From contig CAYRUS010000001.1 in assembly GCA_964427735.1 (NCBI GenBank), forward strand, positions 666,756 through 730,755: 64,000 nt of DNA, read 5' to 3'. Numbering within the stretch: position 1 is the stretch's first letter; each line of letters starts with the position of its first letter. Source of the DNA: an uncultured Gammaproteobacteria bacterium. GTDB lineage: Bacteria > Patescibacteriota > Microgenomatia > UBA8517. The position numbers and the translations under genes are program-made. The notes beneath the pieces are model-generated. The model was not told the origin of the DNA. It saw only the letters and a list, made by a program, of their open reading frames with translations, and did not search any database. Positions 12,220 through 62,768 of this stretch are shown here, in pieces.

Positions 12220-12292
12220 GGGCCGGTAACTCAGTGGTTAGAGTGCCAATCTTATAAGTTGGAAGTCGATGGTTCGAATCCATCCCGGCCCA
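12220..12292 (+). tRNA. tRNA-Ile, anticodon UAU (reads AUA)
   Basis: Hand-folded cloverleaf: acceptor GGGCCGG/CCGGCCC, D stem ACTC/GAGT, anticodon stem CCAAT/GTTGG with loop CTTATAA (TAT at 34-36), T stem GATGG/CCATC, discriminator A. 73 nt. Confidence 0.7.
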
Positions 12293-12376
12293 CTCAAATA
12301 CTTTTTAATTTACATTAATAAGTCGTGTAGGTGGCAACTAGTGACAGGAGAATATAGATAAGTACTTTGCTGAAAC

Positions 12377-14464: not shown

Positions 14465-14470
14465 ACTGTG

Positions 14471-14540
14471 TTGCGGGGCTAGGAGTCGAACCTAGTCTGG
14501 AAGATTATGAGCCTTCCGTGCAGCCGTACACTACCCCGCA
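14471..14540 (-). tRNA. tRNA with anticodon CAU (Met elongator / initiator / Ile-lysidine not distinguishable by eye); short D arm
   Basis: Minus-strand sequence TGCGGGGTAGTGTACGGCTGCACGGAAGGCTCATAATCTTCCAGACTAGGTTCGACTCCTAGCCCCGCAA. Acceptor TGCGGGG/CCCCGCA, anticodon loop CTCATAA identical to the E. coli initiator loop, T stem CTAGG/CCTAG. Confidence 0.6.
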
Positions 14541-14680: not shown

Positions 14681-14754
14681 GCCAGCGTAGCTCAGTTGGT
14701 TAGAGCGTGGGATTCATAAACCCAAGGTCGGAGGTTCGATCCCTCCCGCTGGCA
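14681..14754 (+). tRNA. tRNA with anticodon CAU (Met/fMet/Ile2 ambiguous); G1:C72 paired, GGG/CCC in anticodon stem with A31-A39 mismatch
   Basis: GCCAGCG-TA-GCTC-AGTTGGTTA-GAGC-G-TGGGA-TTCATAA-ACCCA-AGGTC-GGAGG-TTCGATC-CCTCC-CGCTGGC-A. 74 nt. Confidence 0.65.
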
Positions 14755-14885
14755 CATATTGTATTTGCTAATTAAAAATGTCTAACTTATAATATGCACA
14801 CATGATAACAGTTGCAAACTGGCATTACTTGAAATTCTCCTAACGGGGGCTAGTTTCCAGTGGCCAAAAGGCAATTTTTAACAGA

Positions 14886-48657: not shown

Positions 48658-49041
48658 TCAAGATGCTTTGTCAGCTGTATAAGTTATGTTTACTAATCTC
48701 ATTAAAATCCACGCTAGTAGTGCATAGAAAAACATAGCAACTAGTACAGACCATTCAATAACCGATCCTTCAACTGCAGTGTTGCCAAATACGAACCTAA
48801 AGGGAGCCATAAGAACGTTAGTAATTGTATAGACTCCGTTTACAATCCCGGCGGCTGGATTCGCTCCAGTCATTCTAAATAAAAATCTTAATAAAAGAAG
48901 TGACTCAATTATTCCAAATACAAGGTATATCCCTTGATCTATTGCAGAATAACTCGCTACTTTATTATCATCATGTGCACTTGTTGTATCAACCATTTCG
49001 GTTCTTGAAACTTTTCTATAAGCCATCTCTCTCACCTCCAA
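48658..49041 (-). CDS. Small integral membrane protein (YggT-like?)
   Basis: 127 aa with two TM helices. Last gene before the compositionally distinct island. Confidence 0.3.
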   Translation of the reverse strand: MEVREMAYRKVSRTEMVDTTSAHDDNKVASYSAIDQGIYLVFGIIESLLLLRFLFRMTGANPAAGIVNGVYTITNVLMAPFRFVFGNTAVEGSVIEWSVLVAMFFYALLAWILMRLVNITYTADKAS

Positions 49042-49238
49042 TCATTAATTTGATGATACATAGTGATTGATTAATATTAGATGAAAGAGTTGAAAGAATT
49101 AGTTAAGTATGGAGTTGAGCTGTGGCTTGTAGACGCAGTTCGAAAATTTTATCTCAATTCAAATACACCTATTCAGCCAGCATATCAGCTTAGCTATTAG
49201 TGATTTCCATCATTGGTGATTAAAGTGCAGTTCCATAA

Positions 49239-49320
49239 TGGTGGTAAAAATACCAGAGACGCATGAGATAGCTCGTGCATGAGGTGTGGTGGTGCTTGCG
49301 GAGGTGGTATTTTTACCACC
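49239..49320. repeat. Inverted repeat pair TGGTGGTAAAAATACC (49239-49254) / GGTGGTATTTTTACCACC (49303-49320, itself a perfect hairpin), bracketed by direct repeats ATTTCCATCATTG at about 49204 and about 49338
   Basis: Read directly in the intergenic stretch between the yggT-like gene and the hsd island. Confidence 0.5.
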
Positions 49321-49376
49321 CATCCCTATACTAATCCATTTCCATCATTGATGAGCGAAATACACTCCAGGAAACC

Positions 49377-50246
49377 TTACAAGGTAGACTCGTATGAATC
49401 TTTTATCAGTGAGAATACATAATCGGTATCAGTGTCTGGCTCAAATCTAGCAAGTCCAAGGTAGCCCCACTCATTGCTGGTGATGTCTTTAACCAACTTC
49501 TTGCTATCATTTGGATAAGATCTATCTCTGAGCAACACCTTGATGTAATTTGTGTAAAATTCAAACCTCACAAAGCTTTTTGTGGTCTTGTAAGTAATTC
49601 CGCTTTTTTGAGCTGCTTTTTCCTCCACATCTGGCAACTGTAAAATTTGTTCTCTCAAGGTCTTATATTTCTTTTGCATCACATCGCTTGTTTTGTTCAT
49701 ATGGAATTCCAAACTATATTCAGTTGTATCAACCAAGTCAGCGACTTTTCTTGGTTTTAGTGTTGGCGGTGTATAGATGCTTTCCAAATGAAGAATATCA
49801 GGCTGATAATAGTGATAGGACAATAATTCTATGTTACTCTCTTGCTCAACTGCGCCTAAGATGTATCTTCCAAAACCTCTGGCGACTAGTACAACTCTTG
49901 GTAGCTCCCAGTTAACTTTGATTCCTTTACCTAGTCTATTTTCAACAAGTAGTTCAAAATGCTTCTTGTTCTTGATGAGCCAGTTGTAATAAAAGAGTCC
50001 TTGAGCAAGCACTTCTTCGTTTTCTTTCCATTTGTATTCCAATATAACTGGTGAGTTGTTCTCATCTAATCCAAGAGTGTCAATTCTGCCATCATGTATT
50101 GGATATTCTTTCTCAATAAACCTGATACCTAATAAGTCCTCAAGGTTTGCAGCAAAGAAATCTCTTAAAGAAAACTCATCGCCAAAGCCATCATCTTTGA
50201 TTGAGCATTTAATAACTTTATTATTATCTATCTTAAATATAGCCAT
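49377..50246 (-). CDS. PD-(D/E)xK nuclease-fold protein (NucS/DUF91-like N-terminal domain, DUF4268-like C-terminal half); last gene of the hsd operon
   Basis: D...ExK motif GRIDTLGLDENNSPVILEYKWKE. Probable start at the second Met (MAIFKI, 50246), overlapping the hsdR stop (50248-50250). Confidence 0.45.
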   Translation of the reverse strand: MAIFKIDNNKVIKCSIKDDGFGDEFSLRDFFAANLEDLLGIRFIEKEYPIHDGRIDTLGLDENNSPVILEYKWKENEEVLAQGLFYYNWLIKNKKHFELLVENRLGKGIKVNWELPRVVLVARGFGRYILGAVEQESNIELLSYHYYQPDILHLESIYTPPTLKPRKVADLVDTTEYSLEFHMNKTSDVMQKKYKTLREQILQLPDVEEKAAQKSGITYKTTKSFVRFEFYTNYIKVLLRDRSYPNDSKKLVKDITSNEWGYLGLARFEPDTDTDYVFSLIKDSYESTL

Positions 50247-50247
50247 T

Positions 50248-53200
50248 TTACTTTTCTCCAGTCCAATCTTTTGCCAATAATTCAGCTTGCTCAAGTACTA
50301 TTTTGGTTGCACTTTCTTGCTTGTCTGGTGGATATTTGTATTTTTTCAATAGTCGTTTGATATAGACTCTTAGTTTTGCCTGAACGCTTTCTTTAATAGT
50401 CCAGTCAATGGTGGTGTTCTTTCGAAGCATGTCCACCAGTTCTCGTGCCATTGCTTTGAGTGTCTCATCTCCAAGCTCGCGGACAGCACTTTCATTGTTT
50501 GCCAGTGCATCATAAAAAGCTACTTCTTCATCGCTAAGACCTAGATCGTGTCCTTTTTCTTTCTCCAGTTTTATTTTCTTGGCAAGTTCCAGAAGCTCTG
50601 CAATAACTTGTGCCGCCTCAATGGTTCTGTTTTGGTATTTTCGTATTGTCTCTTCAAGCATTTCAGCAAATGAGCGAGACTTTACCAGGTTTTGTTTGGT
50701 CATCGTTCGCAACTCATCATTTAGAAGTTTTTTCAATAGTTCTAGTGCAACATTTTTGTGCTCCATATTCTTAACTTCTGCCAAAAATTCTTCAGAGAAT
50801 ATAGAAATGTCAGGCGATTTGATACCAGCTGCAGAATAGATGTCGATAACCGCATCAGAAGTCACCGCAGAAGAAACAATCTGGCGTATTGCCAAGTCAT
50901 AATCATCGTCAGTTGGTCCACCTCCGTGAGGCTCCATCTTCAGAATAGCACCTCTAATAATTTGGAAGAATGCAACTTCATCACGAATCCTGATTGCTTC
51001 ATCGTGTGGTACAGCCAAAGAAAATGCCTTAGATAGCTCTGAAACCGCCTGTAGGAAGCGTTTTTTACCTTCATTGATGCCTAGCACAAAGTCAGTGGCT
51101 GCAGAGATGGTTTGAGTACGCTGGCCTGGTGTTCCATCAAAGTAATTCTGGTAGTCAAAACCATGAAATAGAGCCTTTACTACCTCATATTTCTCAAGCA
51201 TGACTGATACTGCTTGATCTTGTGGAATGGCCGTTTCCTGGCGGTCTGATTCTGAGTAATAAGAAAGTGCTTCCTTAAGCTCAGGTGCAATGCCAATATA
51301 GTCCACAATAAGTCCACCTTGCTTGTCTTTGTAGACTCGATTGACACGAGCAATAGCTTGCATCAGTCCATGGCCTTTCATTGGTTTATCAACATACATG
51401 GTGTGAAGTGAAGGTACATCAAAACCAGTCAGCCACATATCACGGACAATAACCAACTTCAGTTCATCGTCTGGATCTTTCATTCTTCTGGCTACTTCGT
51501 CCAGCATATGCTTTGGTCTTATATGAGGCTGGAAATTGAGTGGATCAGCAGCACTTCCAGTCATGACAACTTTTAAAAATCCTTTCTTGTCATCATCGCT
51601 ATGCCAATGAGGTCTTAATTTGATAAGTTCGTTATACAGCTCAACCGCAATTCTTCTGCTCATAGCTACTATCATGCCTTTGCCATCCATTACATCCAGA
51701 CGATTTTCAAAATGTTCTACCAAGTCTTTTGCCACCAGCGCAATTCTTTTCTCAGAACCAACCATAGCTTCAAGCCGCGCCCACTTGCTCTTGAGCTTTT
51801 CTTTTCGCTCTGTTTCTTCACCTTCTGTCAGCTCTTCAAATTCAGGATCAATCTTTGGCTGTTCCTCTTTCTTTAGCTCAATTCGTGCCAGCCTTGCTTC
51901 ATAATAGATCGGCACTGTAGCATGATCCTCAACAGCTCTAGTGACATCGTAGACATCCACATACTCGCCAAATACTGCTCTGGTGTTTCTATCAGTAAGT
52001 TCAACTGGAGTACCTGTAAAGCCAATAAATGAAGCGTTTGGCAGTGCATCGCGCATATGCTTGGCAAAGCCTGAAATAAATTCATATTGGCTTCTGTGAG
52101 CTTCATCCGCAATAACTACAATGTTTTTCCTGTCAGACAACATTGGATAAGACTCACTAGAGTTAACTGGCAAGAACTTCTGGATAGTGGTAAATATCAC
52201 ACCACCTGATGCGACCTTCAATAACTCCTGCAGTTCATGTCTGTCAGAAGCCTGTTTTGGTGTTTGCCGCAAGAGGTCAGCGCACTTGGAAAAAGTGCCA
52301 AATAACTGATTGTCCAAGTCATTTCTGTCAGTCAATACAACAAGAGTAGGATTGTTGAGCTCTTGGATCACTTTGCCTGCAAAAAATGTCATTGTCAGAC
52401 TCTTGCCAGATCCTTGCGTATGCCAGACTACACCGGCTCTTCTGTCTCCTTCTTCTTGTGTTGCCTTAATAGTACTTTCAACTGCTTTATTGGTGGCAAA
52501 GTATTGATGATATGCAGCAGCTTTTTTTATAGTCTTTTCTCCGTCAGTCTCAAAGACGATAAAGTTTGAGATAAGGTCTAAGAGTCTGTTCTTGTCGAAT
52601 ATACCTTTCAAGAGTACTTCCAGCTGTGGCAGAGCATTTGGTGCTAACTCTTCACCGTCTACTGTTCGCCACCTGGTAAACCATTCCAAATTGGCAGAGA
52701 GTGTGCCGACTCTGGCATCAGTTCCATCACTGATGATGGAAAGTTCGTTATAGGCAAAAAGTGTTGGAATGTCTTGCTTGTAAGTCTGGATTTGATTAAA
52801 GGCACCTTTGACGGTCGCTTTTTCATCTCCAGGATTTTTGAGTTCTATCACCACCAACGGTAAACCATTTACAAAGACGATAACATCAGGCCTTCTGTTG
52901 ATATTATTCTCAATGACAGTGAATTGATTGACCGCCACAAAGTCATTTTCAGAAGCGTTATTCAGGTCTACCAGTCTCACCTTATCACCAGCCACACTTC
53001 CATCACTTCTCATGTATTCCACATCCACGCCATCACGAAGGTATGAGTGAAATATCTTGTTGTTGAGTACCAAGCTTGGAGTAACAAATGCTACTTGCAA
53101 TGCTTTCTTGAAAGCTTCTTCTTTGGCATCGGCTGGAATATCAGGATTGAATTTCTCAATTGCTTTCCAAAGTCTTTCTTCCAGAACTACATCGGCATAC

Positions 53201-53328
53201 GACTTACGTTCTGGATTTTCTCCATCAGGAGGTGGTGCAATCTCAGGACCACCAACCACAGAATAACCAAGCTCCTCAAGCCATTCCAATGTTGCTAGTT
53301 CTAAATCTGTTTCTGTGTATTTAGTCAT
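50248..53328 (-). CDS. hsdR: Type I restriction enzyme R subunit (HsdR)
   Basis: N-terminal [22 protein letters not shown], Walker [14 protein letters not shown] box [12 protein letters not shown], helicase C-terminal motifs; about 1025 aa. ORF track start is 53352; the MTKY start at 53328 is more likely. Confidence 0.9.
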
Positions 53329-54490
53329 GATTAGCTTTCTTGATATCTTCAACTATAAAGGATGCTCTTTCATACAGTTCATCGTAAGTAACAATATCTA
53401 TATTTCTTGAGTCTCGCTGGAAAAGCTCGTACGTTCTTGCTTTAGTTCTTAGTTCCTCAGTATCTCCAGAGAATTGATTTGAATTTCCGATTATTAATAT
53501 GGTTTTAGGATCAACTGTCTGTTGCTTAATATGTTTACCTTCGTCATCAAAGTTTTTGCTTGCATTTGCCTCAGATTTAATTTGCCAACTAGCCTTTTGT
53601 TCTAGTATTTGTGAAACGGCATGGATTAAGTCTGATGATAAACACCAACTACCTGAACGGTTTTTGTCCTCTCCAAACAGTGGAGTGTTTGGTTTTTTAA
53701 GCTCTACTAATACAGTAAATCTATTACAGCTTAATAAAAAATCTCCAATCTCACCATCTTTTCCAGCAATATTTGTATTAGAAACATGTACCTCTTTTTG
53801 AAGTATTCCTAAAAATCGATAGTCTAGTCCGTATCCAAATATCCAAGGATTCTTTGTGAAAAAATGCTGCCATGCGATTTCTTCTCTTTTATCATTTAGT
53901 GACTCTTGTTCTTGATACTTCTCTAAATATCCGTCTTCATTTAATAATTTATAAAATACGTCAAGCTGATTTTTCCTATAACCGATGTTGGTTATATCAG
54001 TAGAGGTAACTAGTCCATTTTTTATCAATTCTTTTAAAAGCTTTTCACCTTCTTCAGTCGATAAAAGTGTAACTATCTTTTTTTTAGTTTCTTCGTTAAG
54101 AGTGAGAAAAGTTTCATCGGATAAGCCAATCCTTCTCTCGGAAATACTTTTTAGGTCCAGCTTTCTTAAAAAAGAAATAAAGCTCATCACCTTTTCGAAA
54201 GTAAACGATGAAAACGTAACTTTCTCATCAGTTTTTGTCCACTGACCTTTGGATAATCTGAATTTCTCTATAACTACTCTGTTGATGTCGTCTTTATCTT
54301 TTATGTAGCCAACAGTGACCTTTAGTTTTATTTGAGGTGATAGTTCAAATTCTTCTGTATCAGATGCATAAAAGTTAAGATACTTTCCATCACCACTACC
54401 AAAATTGCTCACGTACAATACATCAGTACTTGAGTTTCCTGCAATGTCTGCATCAGATGGTTCTGGTATTTTCCAATCGTCAAAGCTCAT
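53321..54490 (-). CDS. DUF4263 (Shedu SduA-like) PD-(D/E)xK nuclease-domain protein embedded between hsdS and hsdR
   Basis: C-terminal half [25 protein letters not shown]...[27 protein letters not shown]...[10 protein letters not shown]...[13 protein letters not shown] matches my recollection of the DUF4263/Shedu nuclease domain (D...ElK core). 389 aa, start 1 nt after the hsdS stop, stop overlapping the hsdR start. Confidence 0.45.
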
Positions 54491-54491
54491 A

Positions 54492-55772
54492 TTAATTCAC
54501 TCTTATCTTTCCACTCATAAGTCTTGGTAATAGCGAGTCTCTTAATGTCGTTAGAGTCATTATTTCGTGCATGTTTTCATCAATTTTTAATAGCAAGTGG
54601 CTTGCTGACTTTTCAAATAACTGTCTAACACTTGAATCTGGATACAACACATTAAGAATTTTTAATTCTGTTGGTCTAACTCGCTGCCTGGAACCTGTTG
54701 AGCCAGTTGATAAGCTCGAGAAGTATGTATAAAAAATGTTTTCACGAAACATAAAGTTGCTCCAAGTCCAGTCTTCTTTTTTTGGTACCACATTAATGAA
54801 TTCCGTTGAGCTTATAGATTTTTCATTCCACCTATCAGTAAAGATAGTCCAAATACGCTTTGCATTTTTTGGATTTAGTTTAGAAATGAGAATGCTATCC
54901 TGACTTATGTGCGTTTTATTGCTTTTTATCGTATTTCCTAGTTCTAGCATTGGTGAGTTATATTGGTCGAAAGAAGGAATGCTGAAATGCCAATAGTTTT
55001 GGTTTCCGTTCTTACTTGGATTAATTGATTTGGTGTTGATTTCAAATATTTGTTTGACCTTTTTAACCATCCATCCTTTTGGTATCTCGCCAAGTTCACT
55101 TTCCACCATCTCGCCGCCGCTGGATTTGTATGGCTCGCCATTTTCATTTGGAAATTCAAAATCCACAAACCACTGTTTGAATAGAGCTTTACCTATCTCC
55201 TCCAACGTCTTATTCATCCTGCGGTTTAATTCAATCTTGTCATCAAGTGAGGAGAGAATAGAAGCGATTTGTTTTTGCTCGTTTTCTGAAGGAAATGGAA
55301 TACGTGATCTTTCAAGAACATCTGGATTAAATGCTGGATATGTAGATGTAGTTGTATCAGCAATTGCTGACAAATAATTTGTGTATTCCTCTGTTGTGAG
55401 GTAATAGTACAGAAACCTTGGATTAACTTTTTTACTACTTACAACAGCGTATCCGGTAGATGCAATAAGATTAGGTTTTGTTTTAGAAACAAATGCAAAG
55501 TGCTTAAGATTTGGACGTACTGTTGATATTAAAATATCATTATCAGAAACAATCCGTTTTGCTCTGCTTGGTGCATCTTTCAAAGATAACTTTTGAGTTT
55601 CTAATATTTCGCCTTTAAGAGTGGATGATACATCTATATACTCAACCCACTCATACTTAAAATCCTTATTGACTGATGCTTCATTTACTTTTGCAACCTC
55701 TGACAACAAAGCAATATCCCAATCCTCAGGAATTTCACCAATTTCTGTTTGTTTGAATGTATTATTTGTCAT
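54492..55772 (-). CDS. hsdS: Type I restriction-modification specificity subunit (HsdS), two target-recognition domains
   Basis: Conserved central and C-terminal HsdS repeats (IPFPSENEQKQIASILSSLDDKIELNRRMNKTLEEIGKALFKQWFVDFEFP; ...LLLKIDENMHEIMTLTTLRDSLLPRLMSGKIRV) separated by two variable domains; 426 aa. Confidence 0.85.
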   Translation of the reverse strand: MTNNTFKQTEIGEIPEDWDIALLSEVAKVNEASVNKDFKYEWVEYIDVSSTLKGEILETQKLSLKDAPSRAKRIVSDNDILISTVRPNLKHFAFVSKTKPNLIASTGYAVVSSKKVNPRFLYYYLTTEEYTNYLSAIADTTTSTYPAFNPDVLERSRIPFPSENEQKQIASILSSLDDKIELNRRMNKTLEEIGKALFKQWFVDFEFPNENGEPYKSSGGEMVESELGEIPKGWMVKKVKQIFEINTKSINPSKNGNQNYWHFSIPSFDQYNSPMLELGNTIKSNKTHISQDSILISKLNPKNAKRIWTIFTDRWNEKSISSTEFINVVPKKEDWTWSNFMFRENIFYTYFSSLSTGSTGSRQRVRPTELKILNVLYPDSSVRQLFEKSASHLLLKIDENMHEIMTLTTLRDSLLPRLMSGKIRVN

Positions 55773-56403
55773 CTGTATTTTTGTTATCTCGTTTTTGTAT
55801 AGCAGCTTTTTTGCTTACAGGAATCTTGTCATAAATAGCATCAATTTCTTTTGGCTCGGTTATCATTTTTTCAGCTATAAAATTTACAAGTTTAAAAAGA
55901 GCTGATGCTGTTTCAATGTCATCCTTTATATCCAACTCTCCTGGATGTACTGACTCGTTACCAATAACACGAAGTGAGTCAAGCGACTGCTGAACTTTAG
56001 GAGGAAGTCCATTTTTCACTAGATTGGCGATATCAGTATTAAGATCTTTTCCTTTTTCACCAAGCTGAATACATAGCTTTTGAATTGCCAACCTAAGCAA
56101 AGCAGCTGATCCTCTTGGAGACCTTTGCAGAATAGAAACTGCTTCGTTATAGTCTTGAACAATATCATTGTTGAGGTCCTCATTAGGAGGCTCTATTCCT
56201 GAAAAATCTGGATATATCATCTTCTCTTCGTGCCAAATGGAGTACTGGCCACATCTTGCACAAAAACAAACTCGTGTATTTTCTAAAAAACCTCCATTTA
56301 CTGATTTAATGCCGTGCCAATTTTGATTTGAAAAAGCACTGCAGAAAGGACAGTTGAATCCTGACGCTTCAAATTCTGGTTGTGTAAATGGAATTTTTGT
56401 CAT
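55762..56403 (-). CDS. DUF4145-like protein with N-terminal Zn-ribbon (CPFC...CARC), embedded between hsdM and hsdS
   Basis: N-terminal CPFCSAF...CFCARCGQY Cys4 ribbon. C-terminal helical domain with [15 protein letters not shown]...[15 protein letters not shown] resembling the DUF4145 R..GN.aaH core often found in hsd operons. ATGA overlap with the hsdM stop. Confidence 0.5.
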
Positions 56404-57938
56404 AAATCGTAGCCAACTTTTTTTAAATTTTCTTTGATCTTTGCTTCCAGCTCTTTTGACTCTTTGAATTGTGCTGATAATTCGCTGGTGAGTTTTTCCA
56501 TTTTCTCCTCAAACACTTCGTCATCTTCCATCTCAAAATCTGTGCCAACATATCTGCCAGGAGTGAGGACATAGCTATTCTTTTCTACTTCTTCAATCTT
56601 GGCTGATTTGCAAAATCCTTTGACATCCTCGTAGTCGCCGTCTGGATTCCTCCAGTTGTGGTAGGTGTCTGCGATTTGTTTGAGTTCTTTATCTGATAAT
56701 TCACGATGGCGTCTGTCAACCATAGTGCCTAGCTTGCGAGCGTCAATAAAGAGAATCTCTTCATGTCTGTCTCGGAAGTTGTGGTCGTATCTGTCGCGAG
56801 ATACAAACCACAAAGAGGCTGGAATGCCTGTGGTGTAGAACAACTTGTCTGGCAGTGCCACTATGCAGTCAACCAAGCCTTTCTTTATGAGTTCTTCTCT
56901 GATCTTGCCTTCATTGGAAGTGTTGGAAGAAAGCGCACCATTTGCCATCACAAATCCAGCAATGCCGGTAGGTGATAGATGATGGATAAAGTGCTGAATC
57001 CAAGCATAGTTGGCATTGCCTGTTGGTGGAACGCCATATTTCCAGCGGACATCATCGCGGAGTCGCTCGCCACCCCAGTCACTGACATTGAATGGAGGAT
57101 TGGCCAGAATAAAATCCGCTTTCAAGTCTTTGTGAAGATCGTTGTGGAAACTGTCAGCATCGGATTCTCCAAGATTGCCTTCTATGCCGCGAATAGCCAG
57201 ATTCATCTTTGCAAGTCTCCAAGTAGCGGCGTTGCTTTCCTGTCCATATACTGAAATGTCGCCAACATTACCGCCATGCTCCTCAACAAACTTTTCACTT
57301 TGGACAAACATACCGCCACTGCCACAACAAGGATCGTAAACACGGCCTTTGTATGGCTCTATCATTTGCACCAGAAGCTTAACTACTGATGCTGGCGTGT
57401 AGTATTCACCACCTGCTTTGCCTTCTGCGCTGGCAAATCTGCCTATAAAATATTCATAGACACGACCTAAAATATCTTTTGATTTTGACTCTTTATCTCC
57501 AAGACCTAGTGAGCTGAATATATCGACAATTTCACCTAAGCGCTGTTTGTTAAGGTCTGGTCTGGCAAATCTTTTTGGAAGCACTCCTTTGAGCGTTGGA
57601 TTTTCTTTCTCAATAGCTATCATTGCATCATCAATGAGCTTGCCGATTTCTGGCTTTTTGGCGTTTTCCTTTAAGTAATTCCACCTGGCATTTTCCGGCA
57701 CCCAGAATACATTCCTTGCCTTGTAAGCATCTTTGTCCTCACACTCACCATCAAATGCTTCCGGATCGTTCTTGATGGTCTGATACGCTTCTTCGAATGA
57801 ATCTGAAATGTATTTGAGAAAGATAAGACCAAGCACAACATGCTTATATTCACCTGGATCTAAGTTGCCGCGAAGCTTGTCTGCGGCTGACCATAATTTT
57901 GTTTCAAAGCCTAGATTAGCTGATGTATTATTTGCCAT
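56400..57938 (-). CDS. hsdM: Type I restriction-modification N6-adenine DNA methyltransferase subunit (HsdM)
   Basis: SAM-binding motif [13 protein letters not shown], catalytic motif [15 protein letters not shown], HsdM N-terminal domain; 512 aa. Confidence 0.9.
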
Positions 57939-57963: not shown

Positions 57964-58173
57964 TTACTTCTTATTTCTTGACAAGTAAGCTTCAATATCA
58001 CTCTTTCGATAGCGCCTGTCACCAACACCTTTTCGCGTGCCTACACGAACAGCTTTCAGCGTGCCGTTGCGGTCCCACCTACGGAGAGTCTGAATATTTA
58101 CATTTAGTATTTTTGCTGCTTCCTGTAAGGAAATAAGCTCTTCAAGCTCTGCGTTCATATAAGTTATGTCCAA
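57964..58173 (-). CDS. Small helix-turn-helix DNA-binding protein (excisionase/MerR-like HTH)
   Basis: LQEAAKILNVNIQTLRRWDRNGTLKAVRVGTRKGVGDRRYRKSDIEAY, typical of Xis-family/MerR-type HTH; 69 aa. Immediately upstream of hsdM on the same strand. Confidence 0.55.
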   Translation of the reverse strand: MDITYMNAELEELISLQEAAKILNVNIQTLRRWDRNGTLKAVRVGTRKGVGDRRYRKSDIEAYLSRNKK

Positions 58174-58501: not shown

Positions 58502-59281
58502 ATGAAAATAAAAGATAATTCTGATCTTCTGGAACTAAAGGTAAACATTGAATGCAAGAATGACATTGCTTATATGGATTGTGCTTTGCTTCTTGATAAG
58601 CCTGAGTTCTTAAGACTGCTGCCTGAATACAGAAAAAAGCATGGCATAGATGTGCTAGTGCCGTATACTAAGTTCTATGAATGGATTTCCACAAAGATGG
58701 ATGCTGACATCAAAGCAAAAGAAGATGACATCGAAAAAGGTATAACAGTCAACGATATAACAGAGCTGAACCTACCGTTTTTGGAGTTTGAAGAAGATGC
58801 AAAGTCACTCTGTAGACAATTCAAAAAGCCTGGATACTTTGTGCAGATAATTCAGTTTGCCATTGCTTGTGGTGTAGTTGGAGACATCAGCTATCAGCAT
58901 ACGCGAATTGAGGTAACTCCAACTGATCCACCGCCACCACCTGAAGAAACAGAACTACCAGAAGTAAGAATTGTTATCACTCCAATGACAACATTAAAGG
59001 ACGTACAGGAAGTCTTTGAAAAGAATGTGCCTGATATATTTGAATCTCATATGAAACTACTCAACTACTATTACAGAATGAAGAACCGCAAAGCTGGCAA
59101 CTTCAGGCGAGATCGAGAATGGTACTGGAAGAATTTAGAAGGTGAAGGATATACAGAGATTGCACTTTCAGAGGCATCACCATCAGAAAGGCTTGAGTAC
59201 AAAAAGAGTCGCAACAGATATTTGATTACTGAGTATCAAATGGTAAAACAGGCAATCCGCAGATACAAAAACCTCCTCTAG
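58502..59281 (+). CDS. Hypothetical protein (element-borne)
   Basis: 259 aa; poly-Pro stretch PTDPPPPPEE; no family recognised. Confidence 0.4.
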   Translation: MKIKDNSDLLELKVNIECKNDIAYMDCALLLDKPEFLRLLPEYRKKHGIDVLVPYTKFYEWISTKMDADIKAKEDDIEKGITVNDITELNLPFLEFEEDAKSLCRQFKKPGYFVQIIQFAIACGVVGDISYQHTRIEVTPTDPPPPPEETELPEVRIVITPMTTLKDVQEVFEKNVPDIFESHMKLLNYYYRMKNRKAGNFRRDREWYWKNLEGEGYTEIALSEASPSERLEYKKSRNRYLITEYQMVKQAIRRYKNLL

Positions 59282-59354
59282 TAGTGGTGTACAAATAATC
59301 TTCAACTTTCTGTAGCTCTTTAGACTTCATCATTTTTAAGACAATGTTCTTAAG

Positions 59355-59504
59355 ATGAAACTAAGCCAGAAAGCAATCGACGAATTCAAAGAGATTTACT
59401 TCAAAAAGTTTGGTGTGCAATTGACAGACGATAAAGCTAATGAGCTTGGCGTTGAGTTGTTGGAATTCTTCAAATTGATATACAAACCAATTCCAAAAAA
59501 CTGA
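59355..59504 (+). CDS. Small hypothetical protein (49 aa), tightly packed before the HTH_36 gene
   Basis: ATG at 59355, stop TGA 59502-59504, next gene ATG at 59507. MKLSQKAIDEFKEIYFKKFGVQLTDDKANELGVELLEFFKLIYKPIPKN. Not in the ORF track (less than 60 aa). Confidence 0.3.
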   Translation: MKLSQKAIDEFKEIYFKKFGVQLTDDKANELGVELLEFFKLIYKPIPKN

Positions 59505-59506
59505 AT

Positions 59507-60019
59507 ATGAAACGCAAAAACTTTACCATGATTCCAAATGCATTGCTAAGTGAATCTCAACTATCAGTTCCTGCAAGATATTTGCTTTGTGTACTGCACA
59601 AATATTCGTTTCAAAAGGATTATTGCTGGCCAGGACAAGAAACGTTAGGTAAGGATTTAGGATACTCAGCAAGGCATATAAGAAACCTATTAAATGAACT
59701 ATTAAAATCTGGAGTTGTTGTGTCCGAAAGATGTGGATGGAATCGCACAAATACTTACAAGTTGAGTAAGAATCTTCAGTCAACCAGAGTTGCCTCATCA
59801 AATGAGTCAAACGGCAAATCGTGCCAGAAACAGACTTCCGCTCATTTTGGAACTGTAATTCCAATCCATCAAGGAAATCCACTTCCAACTAAGAATACTT
59901 ATGGAAGTAGAAAAGAGAATAACGGAAGTTCAAAAGGACTAGAAAGTTTACGGCAAGCAATGGTTGATATAGGTCTTAAACCAAATAGCCAAATAAGGCT
60001 AGAAAAGGCTGACTTTTAG
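59507..60019 (+). CDS. Helix-turn-helix (HTH_36-type) protein, replication-initiator/regulator-like, element-borne
   Basis: N-terminal FTMIPNALLSESQLSVPARYLLCVLHKYSF...YCWPGQETLGKDLGYSARHIRNLLNELLKSGVV resembles the HTH_36 / replisome-organiser N-terminal domain common on plasmids and phages. Confidence 0.45.
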   Translation: MKRKNFTMIPNALLSESQLSVPARYLLCVLHKYSFQKDYCWPGQETLGKDLGYSARHIRNLLNELLKSGVVVSERCGWNRTNTYKLSKNLQSTRVASSNESNGKSCQKQTSAHFGTVIPIHQGNPLPTKNTYGSRKENNGSSKGLESLRQAMVDIGLKPNSQIRLEKADF

Positions 60020-60061
60020 CCTAGTATAGCGATAAAATTTATACATAGGAGAATTTAGAAA

Positions 60062-61819
60062 ATGAACTTGATATACGCACAATATTCTAGAAAGTCATCT
60101 GAGTCAAAAGAGAAACAAGCTCTGTCAATTTTTGAGCAAAATGAGGAGTGCAAAAAGGCTGTTGTTCGAGACAATTTGAAAATCGCACATATCTTTGAGG
60201 AATCGAGATCTGCATACAAACCAAATAACAGGCCAGAGTTCACACAAATGATTGAACTGATAGAGGCCAAGAAAGTAAATGCTATCTTGACCTGGAAACC
60301 AGACCGACTATGCCGCAATCCAATGGAAGGCGGACACCTTCTCCAGTTGCTACAAGATGGAAAGTTACAGGAAATTCGATCGACAGATGGTGAAAAATAT
60401 ACACAGGATTCAGATCATCTTATTTTACAGATCCATTTTGGCATGGCTAACCAATATTCCAGAAACCTGAGTAAGAATGTCAAAAGAGGCAACCATTACA
60501 TATTCCACAATAAGAAAAAATGGATTGGACCAGCTAAGCCAGGATACATCAACTACTACGATGAGGCAGCCAAAGAAAAAAAGATAGGCGTGGACGAACT
60601 AAGATTTCCACTGATCCAAAATGCTATTAAGCTCATATTGTCCGGCACTCACACTCCTATGGAAGCTTTTGACGTGCTCAATAACAAATGGAAATTTAGG
60701 TCCAGAAAACGAGGTTCACTAGGTGGCAAACCACTAGCAAAGTCTGGTTGGTATCGGATTTTGACAGATAGTTATTACTATGGCTTAATGGTTCGCACTG
60801 AAGGAGAAGTGATTGGAACACACAAGCCAATGCTCACAGAAGATGAATTTGACACGCTACAGGTAATCTTAGGACGCAAAGGCAAGCCAAGAATGGCCAG
60901 GCATGAATTTGCATATAAACATGTGCTCAAATGTGGTGAATGTGGTGGTTCTGTTACTGCTGAAGAAAAAGTGCAGATAATCTGTTCATCTTGTAAATCC
61001 AAATTTCATAAAGGCAAAGTAACCAATGCTTGTCCGCACTGTAAAATGTTGATTGAGGAGATGAAAAAGCCAACAATTCTCAAATATGTGTACTACCACT
61101 GCACCAAGCGAGTCAATAAATCTTGTACTCAAGGAAGTGTAACAATAGAAAATCTTGAGAAGAGAATAAACGAAGAACTGGATAAGTTCGAATTGAGCGA
61201 AGAATTCCGCGACTGGTGCATTGACCACTTGAATGAACTCAATGAGAAAGAAGAAGTTGATATTAAAACTATCAAAGAAAACCTCGTAAATGAGATGAAT
61301 AAATGTGATAAAGCACTTGCGAAACTTACAAGGCTCAGAATTTCAAGAGAAAACGTCTCAAATAGTGCTGAAATGGAGAAATTCTATGATGATGAAGAGA
61401 AAAGACTGCTAAAAGAGCGCAAAGACATCATGAAGCAAATTGGTACAGTCGATAAGAAACAGGAGGAGTGGTATTTCCAGTCCAAGGAGACATTTAACTT
61501 TGCTTGCACTGCCAAATATCAGTTTGAGACTGGTGACGTTAGAACCAAGACGTATATTTTGTCAAAACTTGGTTCGAACCTAACAATTCTAGATCGAAGC
61601 CTCCAAATTTCAGGCGAAAGGCCATATTTCCTAATAGAGAAAGCAAAGAAGGAGATTCAAGAGGTTGTCCTGGCGTTAGAACCTGAAGAAAAGGCCATAA
61701 TATCAAGCAATTTGCTAGCTTATGAGCCTATCAGTACTATCTTGCTGCGGAGCAGGGATTCGAACCCCAAATTCCAGTTCCAAAGACTGGCGTGTTACCA
61801 TTACACCACTCCGCAATGA
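60062..61819 (+). CDS. Large serine recombinase (resolvase catalytic domain + recombinase domain + Zn-ribbon + coiled coil)
   Basis: N-terminal LIYAQYSRKSSESKEKQALSIFEQ (catalytic Ser region) and DRLCRN motif; central recombinase domain; CGECGGSV...CSSCKSK...CPHCKM zinc ribbon; C-terminal coiled coil. 585 aa. The last 25 codons read through the antisense of tRNA-Gln. Confidence 0.8.
   Translation: MNLIYAQYSRKSSESKEKQALSIFEQNEECKKAVVRDNLKIAHIFEESRSAYKPNNRPEFTQMIELIEAKKVNAILTWKPDRLCRNPMEGGHLLQLLQDGKLQEIRSTDGEKYTQDSDHLILQIHFGMANQYSRNLSKNVKRGNHYIFHNKKKWIGPAKPGYINYYDEAAKEKKIGVDELRFPLIQNAIKLILSGTHTPMEAFDVLNNKWKFRSRKRGSLGGKPLAKSGWYRILTDSYYYGLMVRTEGEVIGTHKPMLTEDEFDTLQVILGRKGKPRMARHEFAYKHVLKCGECGGSVTAEEKVQIICSSCKSKFHKGKVTNACPHCKMLIEEMKKPTILKYVYYHCTKRVNKSCTQGSVTIENLEKRINEELDKFELSEEFRDWCIDHLNELNEKEEVDIKTIKENLVNEMNKCDKALAKLTRLRISRENVSNSAEMEKFYDDEEKRLLKERKDIMKQIGTVDKKQEEWYFQSKETFNFACTAKYQFETGDVRTKTYILSKLGSNLTILDRSLQISGERPYFLIEKAKKEIQEVVLALEPEEKAIISSNLLAYEPISTILLRSRDSNPKFQFQRLACYHYTTPQ
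61745..61815 (-). tRNA. tRNA-Gln, anticodon UUG
   Basis: Minus strand TGCGGAG-TG-GTGT-AATGGTA-ACAC-G-CCAGT-CTTTGGA-ACTGG-AATT-TGGGG-TTCGAAT-CCCTG-CTCCGCA-G; U8 present; anticodon TTG. Confidence 0.7.
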
Positions 61820-61868
61820 AATGAATGAAGCATTTGAATTTTACCAAATTTGGGTATTTTATGCTAGT

Positions 61869-62768
61869 TTATTCTGATGAAGATTCTTCCAAATCAAATT
61901 TAACAGTCTCAACTATTTTTTCTGCAGTTAAGATATTACCCTCCTCACTTGGATGAATACCATCATGATCATCAACATACTCTACCTTTCCATACTTGGA
62001 ACCGTCTTTAAGGGAAGCTTCATATGCATTTATAACCGGAACCTCTAATTCTTTGGACAAGCCAAAAACGTTTTCCATTTGCTCTAAAATCTTTAATACA
62101 TGTTTATCTGCAAAGTCTTCTGACCACACAATTCCTCCTGGACCTTTGCCAAAATTATCCTCAAGTGGGGCAATTTCTGCCATCAGATAGGTGTTTTGAG
62201 TTACTTCTTTTGCTTTTTTGATAAGTCCAGCAAGCTCGATCCAATGCTTATCGCGGTTGTGTTCGTTAAATGGATTGTAGGCAAAGCTTCCCAGGATAAT
62301 CACGTCCGGTTTTAGGTTTGAAATTGATGGGTAGCTTCTTTTACCGTTTGAGAGTCCCTTTTCAAAATACTGACCTGCATCTGTTGTTTTAGATGATCCT
62401 ATTCCATAATTGTACAATTTAAAATTTGTGTCAGGATACTTTTCTTCTAAAGCTTGTTTGAGGTAATCTAGATTTTCTCCCATGGTTTCAACCATAGAAT
62501 CACCTAGAATTGCTATGGAGTATGATTCTTTTTGTAACTGAATGCTTTCTGATGCACTTAGAACTTCCTCTGTGGTGTTGCTGATGTTTGCGATTTCTTG
62601 AACAGGGATCGGAGTTCTATTTGAGAAATTCATAATATGTGGGGGAAGGGAAGTGATTTTATTTTCATTTTCTGCTTTTTCAGCTGCGATATACAGGTTG
62701 CCCATAAAGACAAACAAAAATAAAAAAACATTGACGCTAATAAAAAAAGCAGTCAGTTTTGTCGACAT
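61869..62768 (-). CDS. SGNH/GDSL-family hydrolase (lipase/esterase-like), secreted/membrane-anchored
   Basis: N-terminal TM; GDS motif (ILGDSMVETMG), Gly and Asn blocks, DGIHPSEEG (DxxH catalytic dyad); 299 aa. Confidence 0.65.
   Translation of the reverse strand: MSTKLTAFFISVNVFLFLFVFMGNLYIAAEKAENENKITSLPPHIMNFSNRTPIPVQEIANISNTTEEVLSASESIQLQKESYSIAILGDSMVETMGENLDYLKQALEEKYPDTNFKLYNYGIGSSKTTDAGQYFEKGLSNGKRSYPSISNLKPDVIILGSFAYNPFNEHNRDKHWIELAGLIKKAKEVTQNTYLMAEIAPLEDNFGKGPGGIVWSEDFADKHVLKILEQMENVFGLSKELEVPVINAYEASLKDGSKYGKVEYVDDHDGIHPSEEGNILTAEKIVETVKFDLEESSSE

Follow-up and report, generated by a model that had tools for sequence, protein, structure and literature searches.

In Escherichia coli K-12, Mrr and McrBC lie beside hsdRMS in the immigration control region, and their dependence on DNA modification has been demonstrated there. 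Two proteins that join a NucS-like nuclease to a reader domain have lately proved to be modification-dependent restriction enzymes too. Madara (PDC-S11), from E. coli ECOR34, has a NucS-like nuclease at its N-terminus, joined by a linker to an EVE-like reader at its C-terminus; it restricts phage T4 carrying glucosyl-hydroxymethylcytosine (glucosyl-hmC) and complements BREX, and its D63A mutant is inactive (bioRxiv 10.64898/2026.09.05.749240). END(Mag) combines a NucS-like nuclease with an inactivated EndoIII reader and restricts phages with modified guanine (PMC12191111). The PDC families were defined through their embedding in BREX, DISARM and Type I restriction-modification (R-M) loci ("guilt-by-embedding") and are candidates (bioRxiv 10.1101/2024.01.29.577857). 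Here we analyse a 64,000-nucleotide stretch of DNA (the window; contig CAYRUS010000001.1 of assembly GCA_964427735.1) in which a gene of the PADLOC candidate family PDC-S18 is embedded in the same sense, closing an hsdM-hsdS-hsdR operon. A preliminary description, made from the sequence, had presented this gene as an extra nuclease translationally fused to the 3′ end of hsdR. We propose instead, with a probability of roughly 55%, that the gene at 49377-50246 (minus strand) encodes an autonomous single-protein defence nuclease of PDC-S18 and not a subunit or extension of HsdR.

Like Madara, the window protein has an N-terminal NucS-like PD-(D/E)xK nuclease followed by a linker and a C-terminal domain, and is encoded by a single gene beside a methylation-based system; the C-terminal domain is EVE-like in Madara whereas it is a DUF5655 "double-wing" domain in PDC-S18, and Madara alone has an experimentally known function. 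END(Mag) likewise joins a NucS-type cleavage domain to a separate domain, DNA-reading in END(Mag) and putatively so in PDC-S18, but its reader has a helix-hairpin-helix (HhH)-glycosylase fold rather than a double wing, and homology is seen for the nuclease domain only. The arrangement of a methylase-less PD-(D/E)xK enzyme with a separate (here putative) reader beside a Type I R-M system also recalls Mrr and McrBC, and the McrB-N fold is related to YjbR. However, Mrr (Mrr_cat with a winged helix) and McrBC (the McrB GTPase with McrC) belong to other families, and the modification dependence established for them is conjectural in PDC-S18. Within PDC-S18 itself nothing sets the window copy apart. 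It has the same length and two-domain architecture and lies in or next to a Type I R-M locus, being a member from Patescibacteria (Candidate Phyla Radiation, CPR) that is placed after hsdR; its nearest named relatives are also from Patescibacteria.

Family membership, domains and active site

By sequence comparison the gene is real and not a chance open reading frame (ORF): a word-indexed search returned 550 homologues, with E values down to 1e-191, and the best 120 listed span 286-311 aa. PADLOC represents PDC-S18 by three models, two of which match the window protein over its full length, PDLC04946 with E 4.7e-63 (residues 2-287) and PDLC04945 with E 1.6e-46 (residues 1-285 against profile positions 1-301 of 302). 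Pfam divides the protein into NucS_C (residues 40-77) and DUF5655 (PF18899, residues 183-287). NucS_C reaches 24.3 bits on the isolated N-terminal half, and DUF5655 scores 25.9 bits when the whole protein is searched and 29.2 bits when residues 175-289 are taken by themselves, both against a gathering cut-off of 24. The C-terminal region had previously been likened to DUF4268, a family that we rejected because the isolated domain gives no match to it even at E<=10.

An AlphaFold model of the whole protein based on 53 homologues (predicted local distance difference test, pLDDT, 89.6) has two domains and a disordered linker at residues 165-173, and a second AF2 model reached a pLDDT of 93.7. The N-terminal domain matches the restriction-endonuclease-like fold in both profile and structure comparisons; its structural neighbours are, in order, NucS/EndoMS, Shedu, FokI and AspBHI. 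Nearest to the C-terminal domain are YdhG-like proteins, YjbR and DUF419, with weaker resemblance to the MotA C-terminal domain and McrB-N. The D...ExK motif and the NucS/DUF91-like context that the preliminary description had named are both borne out. D56 and E70-Y71-K72 are invariant in the 53 homologues, as are E47, Q82 and Y86, and D56/E70/K72 with the following Q..Y align with D160/E174/K176 and Q..Y of P. abyssi NucS. The predicted fold and the catalytic residues place the protein in the PD-(D/E)xK superfamily, NucS_C type, and we consider it very probable that the gene is a PDC-S18 member whose nuclease is, by prediction, active. Against sequences in the PDB, a single-sequence search gave no match and a profile search gave NucS only (E 0.11), while PHROGs gave weak matches only, to families of unknown function. 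The label "predicted transport protein" that JGI applies to homologues is without support in any of our results.

Since NucS is the best match of the nuclease domain in both sequence and structure, one possibility is a housekeeping role in DNA repair, as a NucS/EndoMS-like mismatch endonuclease. NucS/EndoMS (PDB 2vld, 5gke) shares the catalytic fold and the D-ExK-Q..Y residues with the window protein. However, its N-terminal dimerisation/DNA-binding domain is absent from the window protein, in which only 23 residues precede the core, and domain order and context differ. The distribution of the family is also patchy, island- and plasmid-borne, with variable neighbours. We rejected a NucS orthologue because the NCBIfam equivalog NF003270 failed widely (23.2 bits against a cut-off of 216, residues 40-80 only), NucS_N gave no match and the nuclease is N-terminal. 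A repair function thus appears highly improbable.

Shedu, the next structural neighbour, is itself represented in the operon, which bears on the earlier statement that the gene supplies a second nuclease beside HsdR. An additional and apparently intact PD-(D/E)xK nuclease is indeed encoded, but it is the third of the operon, after HsdR and Shedu SduA. The protein could in principle be a Shedu-like sensor, that is, an autonomous nuclease triggered by free DNA ends, single-stranded DNA or replication intermediates of an invader, with DUF5655 restraining the nuclease or binding such structures. We regard this as unlikely. A second end sensor of this kind would be superfluous in the operon, the protein shares no sequence similarity with Shedu (SduA, DUF4263) and matches neither SduA_C nor the PADLOC SduA model, and the domain order is reversed, with the sensor C-terminal in PDC-S18 and N-terminal in Shedu. 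Paralogy with the SduA of the operon was likewise rejected (BLASTP E 6.7).

Start codon and junction with hsdR

The minus-strand ORF ends at 49377, and its longest form opens at a TTG at 50294. We place the actual start at the ATG at 50246-50244 (MAIFKI), in agreement with the preliminary description, because the N-termini of nearly all of the 53 aligned homologues begin M-A/P-I-F-K/R-I at that residue. The stop codon of hsdR, a TAA read directly from the sequence, also lies where it had been placed (50248-50250). However, start and stop do not overlap as had been claimed: the junction reads GGAG-AAAAG-TAA-A-ATG, with one spacer base at 50247 and a Shine-Dalgarno-like GGAG 9 nt upstream of the ATG.

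Nor are the two genes translationally fused. They occupy frames that differ by +1, and stop-codon readthrough would therefore be unable to yield a fusion protein. Whether hsdR carries this gene as a C-terminal extension elsewhere could be judged from a profile search that covered all of 1.84 billion cluster representatives (50% identity) and returned 2257 at E<=1e-3. Among the best 150 of these, nearly all full-length entries are stand-alone proteins of 280-320 aa, and none is a protein of HsdR length or an HsdR fusion. A fusion to HsdR is accordingly rejected, on the stop codon, the spacer and the frame offset as well as on these representatives.

The gene had further been said to stand under the same control as HsdR, and here one part of the claim fares better than the other. 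Co-expression is plausible because the gap is 1 nt, the gene has a GGAG of its own and a scan, whose sites were overall fewer than in shuffled sequence, placed no promoter- or terminator-like site between the two genes; co-transcription and translational coupling with hsdR are plausible on the same grounds. The gene would then be co-transcribed with hsdR, and ribosomes would probably re-initiate at its own GGAG/ATG. A specific tie to HsdR, by contrast, is weak, given the varied neighbours of the homologues.

Distribution and gene neighbourhoods

PDC-S18 is a widespread and compact (about 290 aa) candidate family, as the 2257 representatives attest, and its value is that of a lead. Relatives occur on 23 plasmids (in Staphylococcus, Streptomyces, Rhizobium and Pseudomonas) under the RefSeq name "DUF5655 domain-containing protein"; "DUF91 domain-containing protein" and "endonuclease NucS domain-containing protein" are also used in RefSeq for the family. 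Phage records encoding a relative are rare (2/50,697).

We sampled the neighbourhoods of 80 homologues (loci L001 onwards), one genome per species, using our own ORF calls, phmmer and clustering of 621 neighbour proteins. The earlier association with hsd loci is confirmed to the extent that homologues are often found there: hsd genes flank the homologue in about 20 loci, and in L059 it lies between hsdM and hsdS. An amino-DNA-methyltransferase is present within five genes on either side in 37-39 of the 80 loci (32/63 among loci with good flanks), with a peak at positions ±1 and ±2, and in about half of the loci no methyltransferase was found within five genes. The R-M systems concerned are of unrelated types, including Type I (with HsdR of T1RH or EcoEI type), Type III (N6_N4_Mtase and Res with RE_endonuc) and Type IIG-like enzymes (an HSDR_N_2-N6_Mtase protein with an S subunit). 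Immediate neighbours comprise ResIII, N6_Mtase, N6_N4_Mtase, RadC, Fic, OLD/AAA_15, Piwi, Shedu and KAP NTPase proteins, and the largest neighbour clusters are methyltransferase/HsdS, RadC and D12 methylases, and HsdR. An obligate partner gene was rejected, as all-against-all clusters reach at most 24 of the 80 loci and immediate neighbours are mostly singletons. The small proteins encoded directly upstream of the closest homologues (L001, L004, L005, L028) match no PADLOC model, and that of L001 has no Pfam match either.

Homologues are frequently packed against other genes. The upstream gene lies on the same strand within 15 nt in 29/78 loci, a same-strand neighbour is present within 50 nt in 50/80, and only 1-12 nt separate the upstream stop from the ATG in L001-L004, L015, L020, L023, L029 and L033. 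One possibility is that the gene product, like PrrC, is an accessory or guard coupled to R-M, in physical cooperation with HsdR or other R subunits, acting as a second cutter on translocated DNA or as a backup effector when a phage anti-restriction protein blocks R-M. In the guard form, a frataxin/chaperone-like DUF5655 would bind HsdR/Res or the anti-restriction protein of the phage, and the nuclease would be unleashed only upon R-M block, making it a DNA-level analogue of PrrC; a guard wired to R subunits would explain the frequent position 1-12 nt behind helicase-nuclease R subunits. The 1-nt gap in the window is consistent with such coupling, and the same tight place is found behind HsdR (L015), Type III Res (L023) and ResIII-domain proteins (L003, L029, L033). 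R-M genes are present in about half of the loci, the fold of the C-terminal domain also resembles protein-binding chaperones, and PrrC, which is found embedded almost only in Type I loci, provides a precedent for such an effector (bioRxiv 10.1101/2024.01.29.577857).

However, homologues lie equally tight behind Type III Res, genes associated with prokaryotic Argonaute (pAgo), QatD, RadC or HsdS, or before Type IIG-like enzymes. The R-M partners are of unrelated types, and in about half of the loci R-M genes are absent from the five genes on either side. Close homologues (72-77% identity) come after pAgo or small unknown genes and not after R subunits; in L002 (6720-10873), for example, only 6 nt separate a 77%-identical homologue from the preceding pair of a long pAgo and an Aga helical REase, so that PDC-S18 is found on Argonaute operons too. 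Another homologue comes after QatD. In Rhizobium and Agrobacterium the gene and hsdMSR are transcribed divergently, on a Staphylococcus plasmid it has no R-M gene nearby, and R-subunit fusions are absent from the top 150 representatives. Together, these observations make an R-M-coupled accessory improbable, and we give its guard form similarly poor odds. Because its partners vary, PDC-S18 is better explained as a single-gene system that joins defence operons of many kinds than as an HsdR-specific accessory. The window gene is an ordinary passenger of a defence island rather than a special extension of HsdR. Its attachment to a Type I R-M operon is itself ordinary, an instance of the "embedding" already described, and its family is already catalogued as PDC-S18.

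Some neighbourhoods recur as a unit. L027, L032, L034, L037, L038 and L061 contain a cassette of a RadC-like JAB gene, PDC-S18, a Type IIG-like HSDR_N_2-N6_Mtase fusion and an HsdS-like gene, with the genes overlapping by 4 nt, and L035 has a variant with an N6_N4-type methyltransferase downstream. RadC is directly upstream in six loci, and in a seventh, L061, it precedes the upstream half of a split copy. This cassette may represent a mobile R-M module of which PDC-S18 is a regular component.

Proposed mode of action

An anti-phage role, or one against mobile genetic elements (MGEs), that is independent of HsdR seems to us probable. In the mechanism that we propose, the DUF5655 domain would read a feature of invading DNA on which the Type I enzyme cannot act, most likely a modified or hypermodified base as in Type IV-like restriction; recognition would let two nuclease domains pair and then cut the DNA, and the gene would widen the range of the island rather than aid HsdR. 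Among the functions suggested in the preliminary description, a modification-dependent effector is, by analogy, the most attractive mechanism for PDC-S18, while a decoy-sensing module finds no direct support. Modification-dependent, Type IV-like recognition in particular is a tentative proposal, drawn from analogy, and we would not bet on it at even odds. The comparison with Type IV enzymes draws on the architecture of a nuclease with a putative reader and on neighbourhoods that lack a nearby methyltransferase in about half of the cases and otherwise contain unrelated types.

Related folds offer some precedent for DNA reading. "Double-wing" DNA binders include YjbR and MotCF (PMC7641849), and McrB-N, a reader of 5-methylcytosine (5mC), resembles YjbR (PMC3424535). 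In two informative longer proteins (P0152, P0169), DUF5655 is found elsewhere behind HIRAN+NucS_C and behind GIY-YIG+DUF4357; because of these combinations it behaves as a reader module, which suggests that it is a portable reader/sensor paired with different nucleases. The modification targeted is unlikely to be N6-methyladenine (m6A), since about half of the loci also encode m6A-type methyltransferases near the homologue. There is a weak hint that the enzyme tolerates m6A and might target substituted cytosines: C5-cytosine methyltransferase motifs (PCQxFS and ENV) occur in none of the 621 neighbour proteins and in no ORF of the ±10 kb flanks of the 80 loci, in a crude motif scan without a control.

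Several points weigh against our interpretation, beginning with the crudeness of that scan. A literature search found no paper on PDC-S18 and no experimental report of anti-phage activity; DUF5655 turned up solely in unrelated work, and the supplements of the PDC paper, as far as they were accessible (Table S8 in part), mention neither S18 nor DUF5655 nor NucS. The YjbR/YdhG/frataxin-like fold also binds proteins (type III secretion chaperones) and iron, and DNA reading by DUF5655 is accordingly putative. The isoelectric point (pI) of the C-terminal domain, with a median of 8.7 in the family, is 6.5 and hence near neutral in the window protein. Models for PDC-S11 (Madara) did not match, so that the analogy with Type IV enzymes is one of architecture only. 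Finally, the recurrent place behind large helicase-nuclease R subunits (in the window, L003, L015, L023, L029 and L033) could reflect a functional tie to R-M. If DUF5655 does read DNA or modified bases, it would represent a new reader fold for Type IV restriction and a potential new tool enzyme.

The operon and its island

The operon comprises seven genes of the same strand, with neighbours either overlapping or separated by 1-25 nt, in the order HTH_17, hsdM, RAZR/PD-T7-4, hsdS, Shedu SduA, hsdR and, last, PDC-S18 (Table 1). The SduA stop falls just within the start of hsdR, and the PD-T7-4/RAZR gene overlaps hsdM and hsdS by a few bases each. PD-T7-4 has been renamed RAZR, a zinc-finger HEPN RNase (PMC13017515). 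The operon thus compactly combines, in a single predicted transcription unit, Type I R-M, RAZR, Shedu and PDC-S18 as four defence systems; it is found in a bacterium assigned to Patescibacteria, and it encodes three PD-(D/E)xK nucleases (HsdR, Shedu SduA and PDC-S18).

Table 1. Features of the PDC-S18 gene, its operon and the adjoining recombinase region, in window coordinates.
Feature	Position	Strand	Evidence and remarks
PDC-S18 family gene	49377..50246	-	289 aa + stop; ORF, homologue N-termini, PADLOC PDC-S18, 550 homologues
C-terminal DUF5655 domain, residues 175-289	49380..49724	-	predicted YjbR/YdhG-like "double-wing" alpha+beta fold
Flexible linker, residues 165-174	49725..49754	-	pLDDT <50 at 165-173; variable in length and sequence in the alignment
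NucS-type PD-(D/E)xK nuclease domain, residues 1-164	49755..50246	-	predicted N-terminal beta-hairpin, then alpha-beta-beta-beta-alpha-beta core
Catalytic core	50031..50081	-	D56 (50081-50079), E70-Y71-K72 (50039-50031); Q82 and Y86 just downstream
hsdR/PDC-S18 junction	50244..50259	-	GGAG 50259-50256, TAA 50250-50248, spacer base 50247, ATG 50246-50244
hsdR, Type I restriction subunit	50248..53352	-	probable start ATG 53328; HSDR_N, SWI2_SNF2, T1R_D3-like, T1RH-like_C; REase_I 1175 bits (PADLOC)
Shedu SduA nuclease, between hsdS and hsdR	53321..54490	-	SduA_C 2.5e-28 (Pfam); SduA 3.8e-141 (PADLOC)
hsdS specificity subunit	54492..55772	-	Methylase_S (Pfam)
PD-T7-4/RAZR, between hsdM and hsdS	55762..56403	-	Cys4 zinc finger and HEPN RNase; DUF4145 (Pfam); PD-T7-4 1.5e-85 (PADLOC)
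hsdM, m6A methyltransferase subunit	56400..57938	-	N6_Mtase 1.4e-110, HsdM_N (Pfam)
Small HTH_17/MerR-like (excisionase-type) gene, operon head	57964..58173	-	HTH_17 1.6e-12 (Pfam)
Large serine recombinase, 585 aa	60062..61819	+	Resolvase and Zn_ribbon_recom (Pfam); 3′ end overlaps tRNA-Gln
tRNA-Gln	61744-61815	-	overlapped by the recombinase reading frame on the opposite strand

Upstream of the operon, 58502-61819 (plus strand) encodes a 259-aa protein without a Pfam match, an HTH_36 protein and the serine recombinase. Together with tRNA-Gln, this region resembles an integration module for the island in which the operon lies, and the recombinase probably marks the far edge of that mobile island. 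GC content is 0.42-0.45 in hsdR and hsdM against 0.29-0.39 in the chromosomal sequence past the PDC-S18 end of the operon. The adjacency to the recombinase and tRNA-Gln and this difference in GC suggest that the defence operon is probably the cargo of an integrative element. No att-like direct repeats of at least 10 nt were found between 48991-49400 and the tRNA-Gln/recombinase end (61651-62000); serine recombinases need no such repeats.

This setting raises the possibility that the nuclease serves the serine-recombinase island, or plasmids, in a selfish capacity such as post-segregational killing, exclusion or homing. The adjoining recombinase that overlaps tRNA-Gln and the elevated GC of hsdR and hsdM would fit such a function, as would the serine recombinases found within five genes of PDC-S18 homologues in 7 other loci, the RadC genes upstream of homologues and the plasmid-borne relatives. 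However, such elements routinely carry defence genes, so this evidence fits both readings. Furthermore, no conserved antitoxin-like partner was found among the neighbour clusters, and phage records almost never contain a relative. We therefore think a selfish function has little likelihood, and retain an autonomous defence nuclease as the favoured interpretation.

Downstream of the PDC-S18 gene, the intergenic sequence at 49203-49354 contains a perfect 16-nt inverted repeat (49240-49255/49305-49320) with arms 49 nt apart that are themselves small hairpins, bracketed by 17-nt direct repeats at 49203-49219 and 49338-49354. The 187-nt intergenic region has no significantly stable fold (z -1.77), and Rfam matched tRNAs only across the window, with no match in this repeat-bearing region. 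The repeat may act as the terminator of the operon or mark an edge of the island, or it may be a small repeat element. Elsewhere in the window, a tRNA-Ile with anticodon TAT (UAU), a type uncommon in bacteria, lies at 12220-12293 (plus strand), and two tRNAs with CAT anticodons lie at 14470-14540 and 14681-14755.

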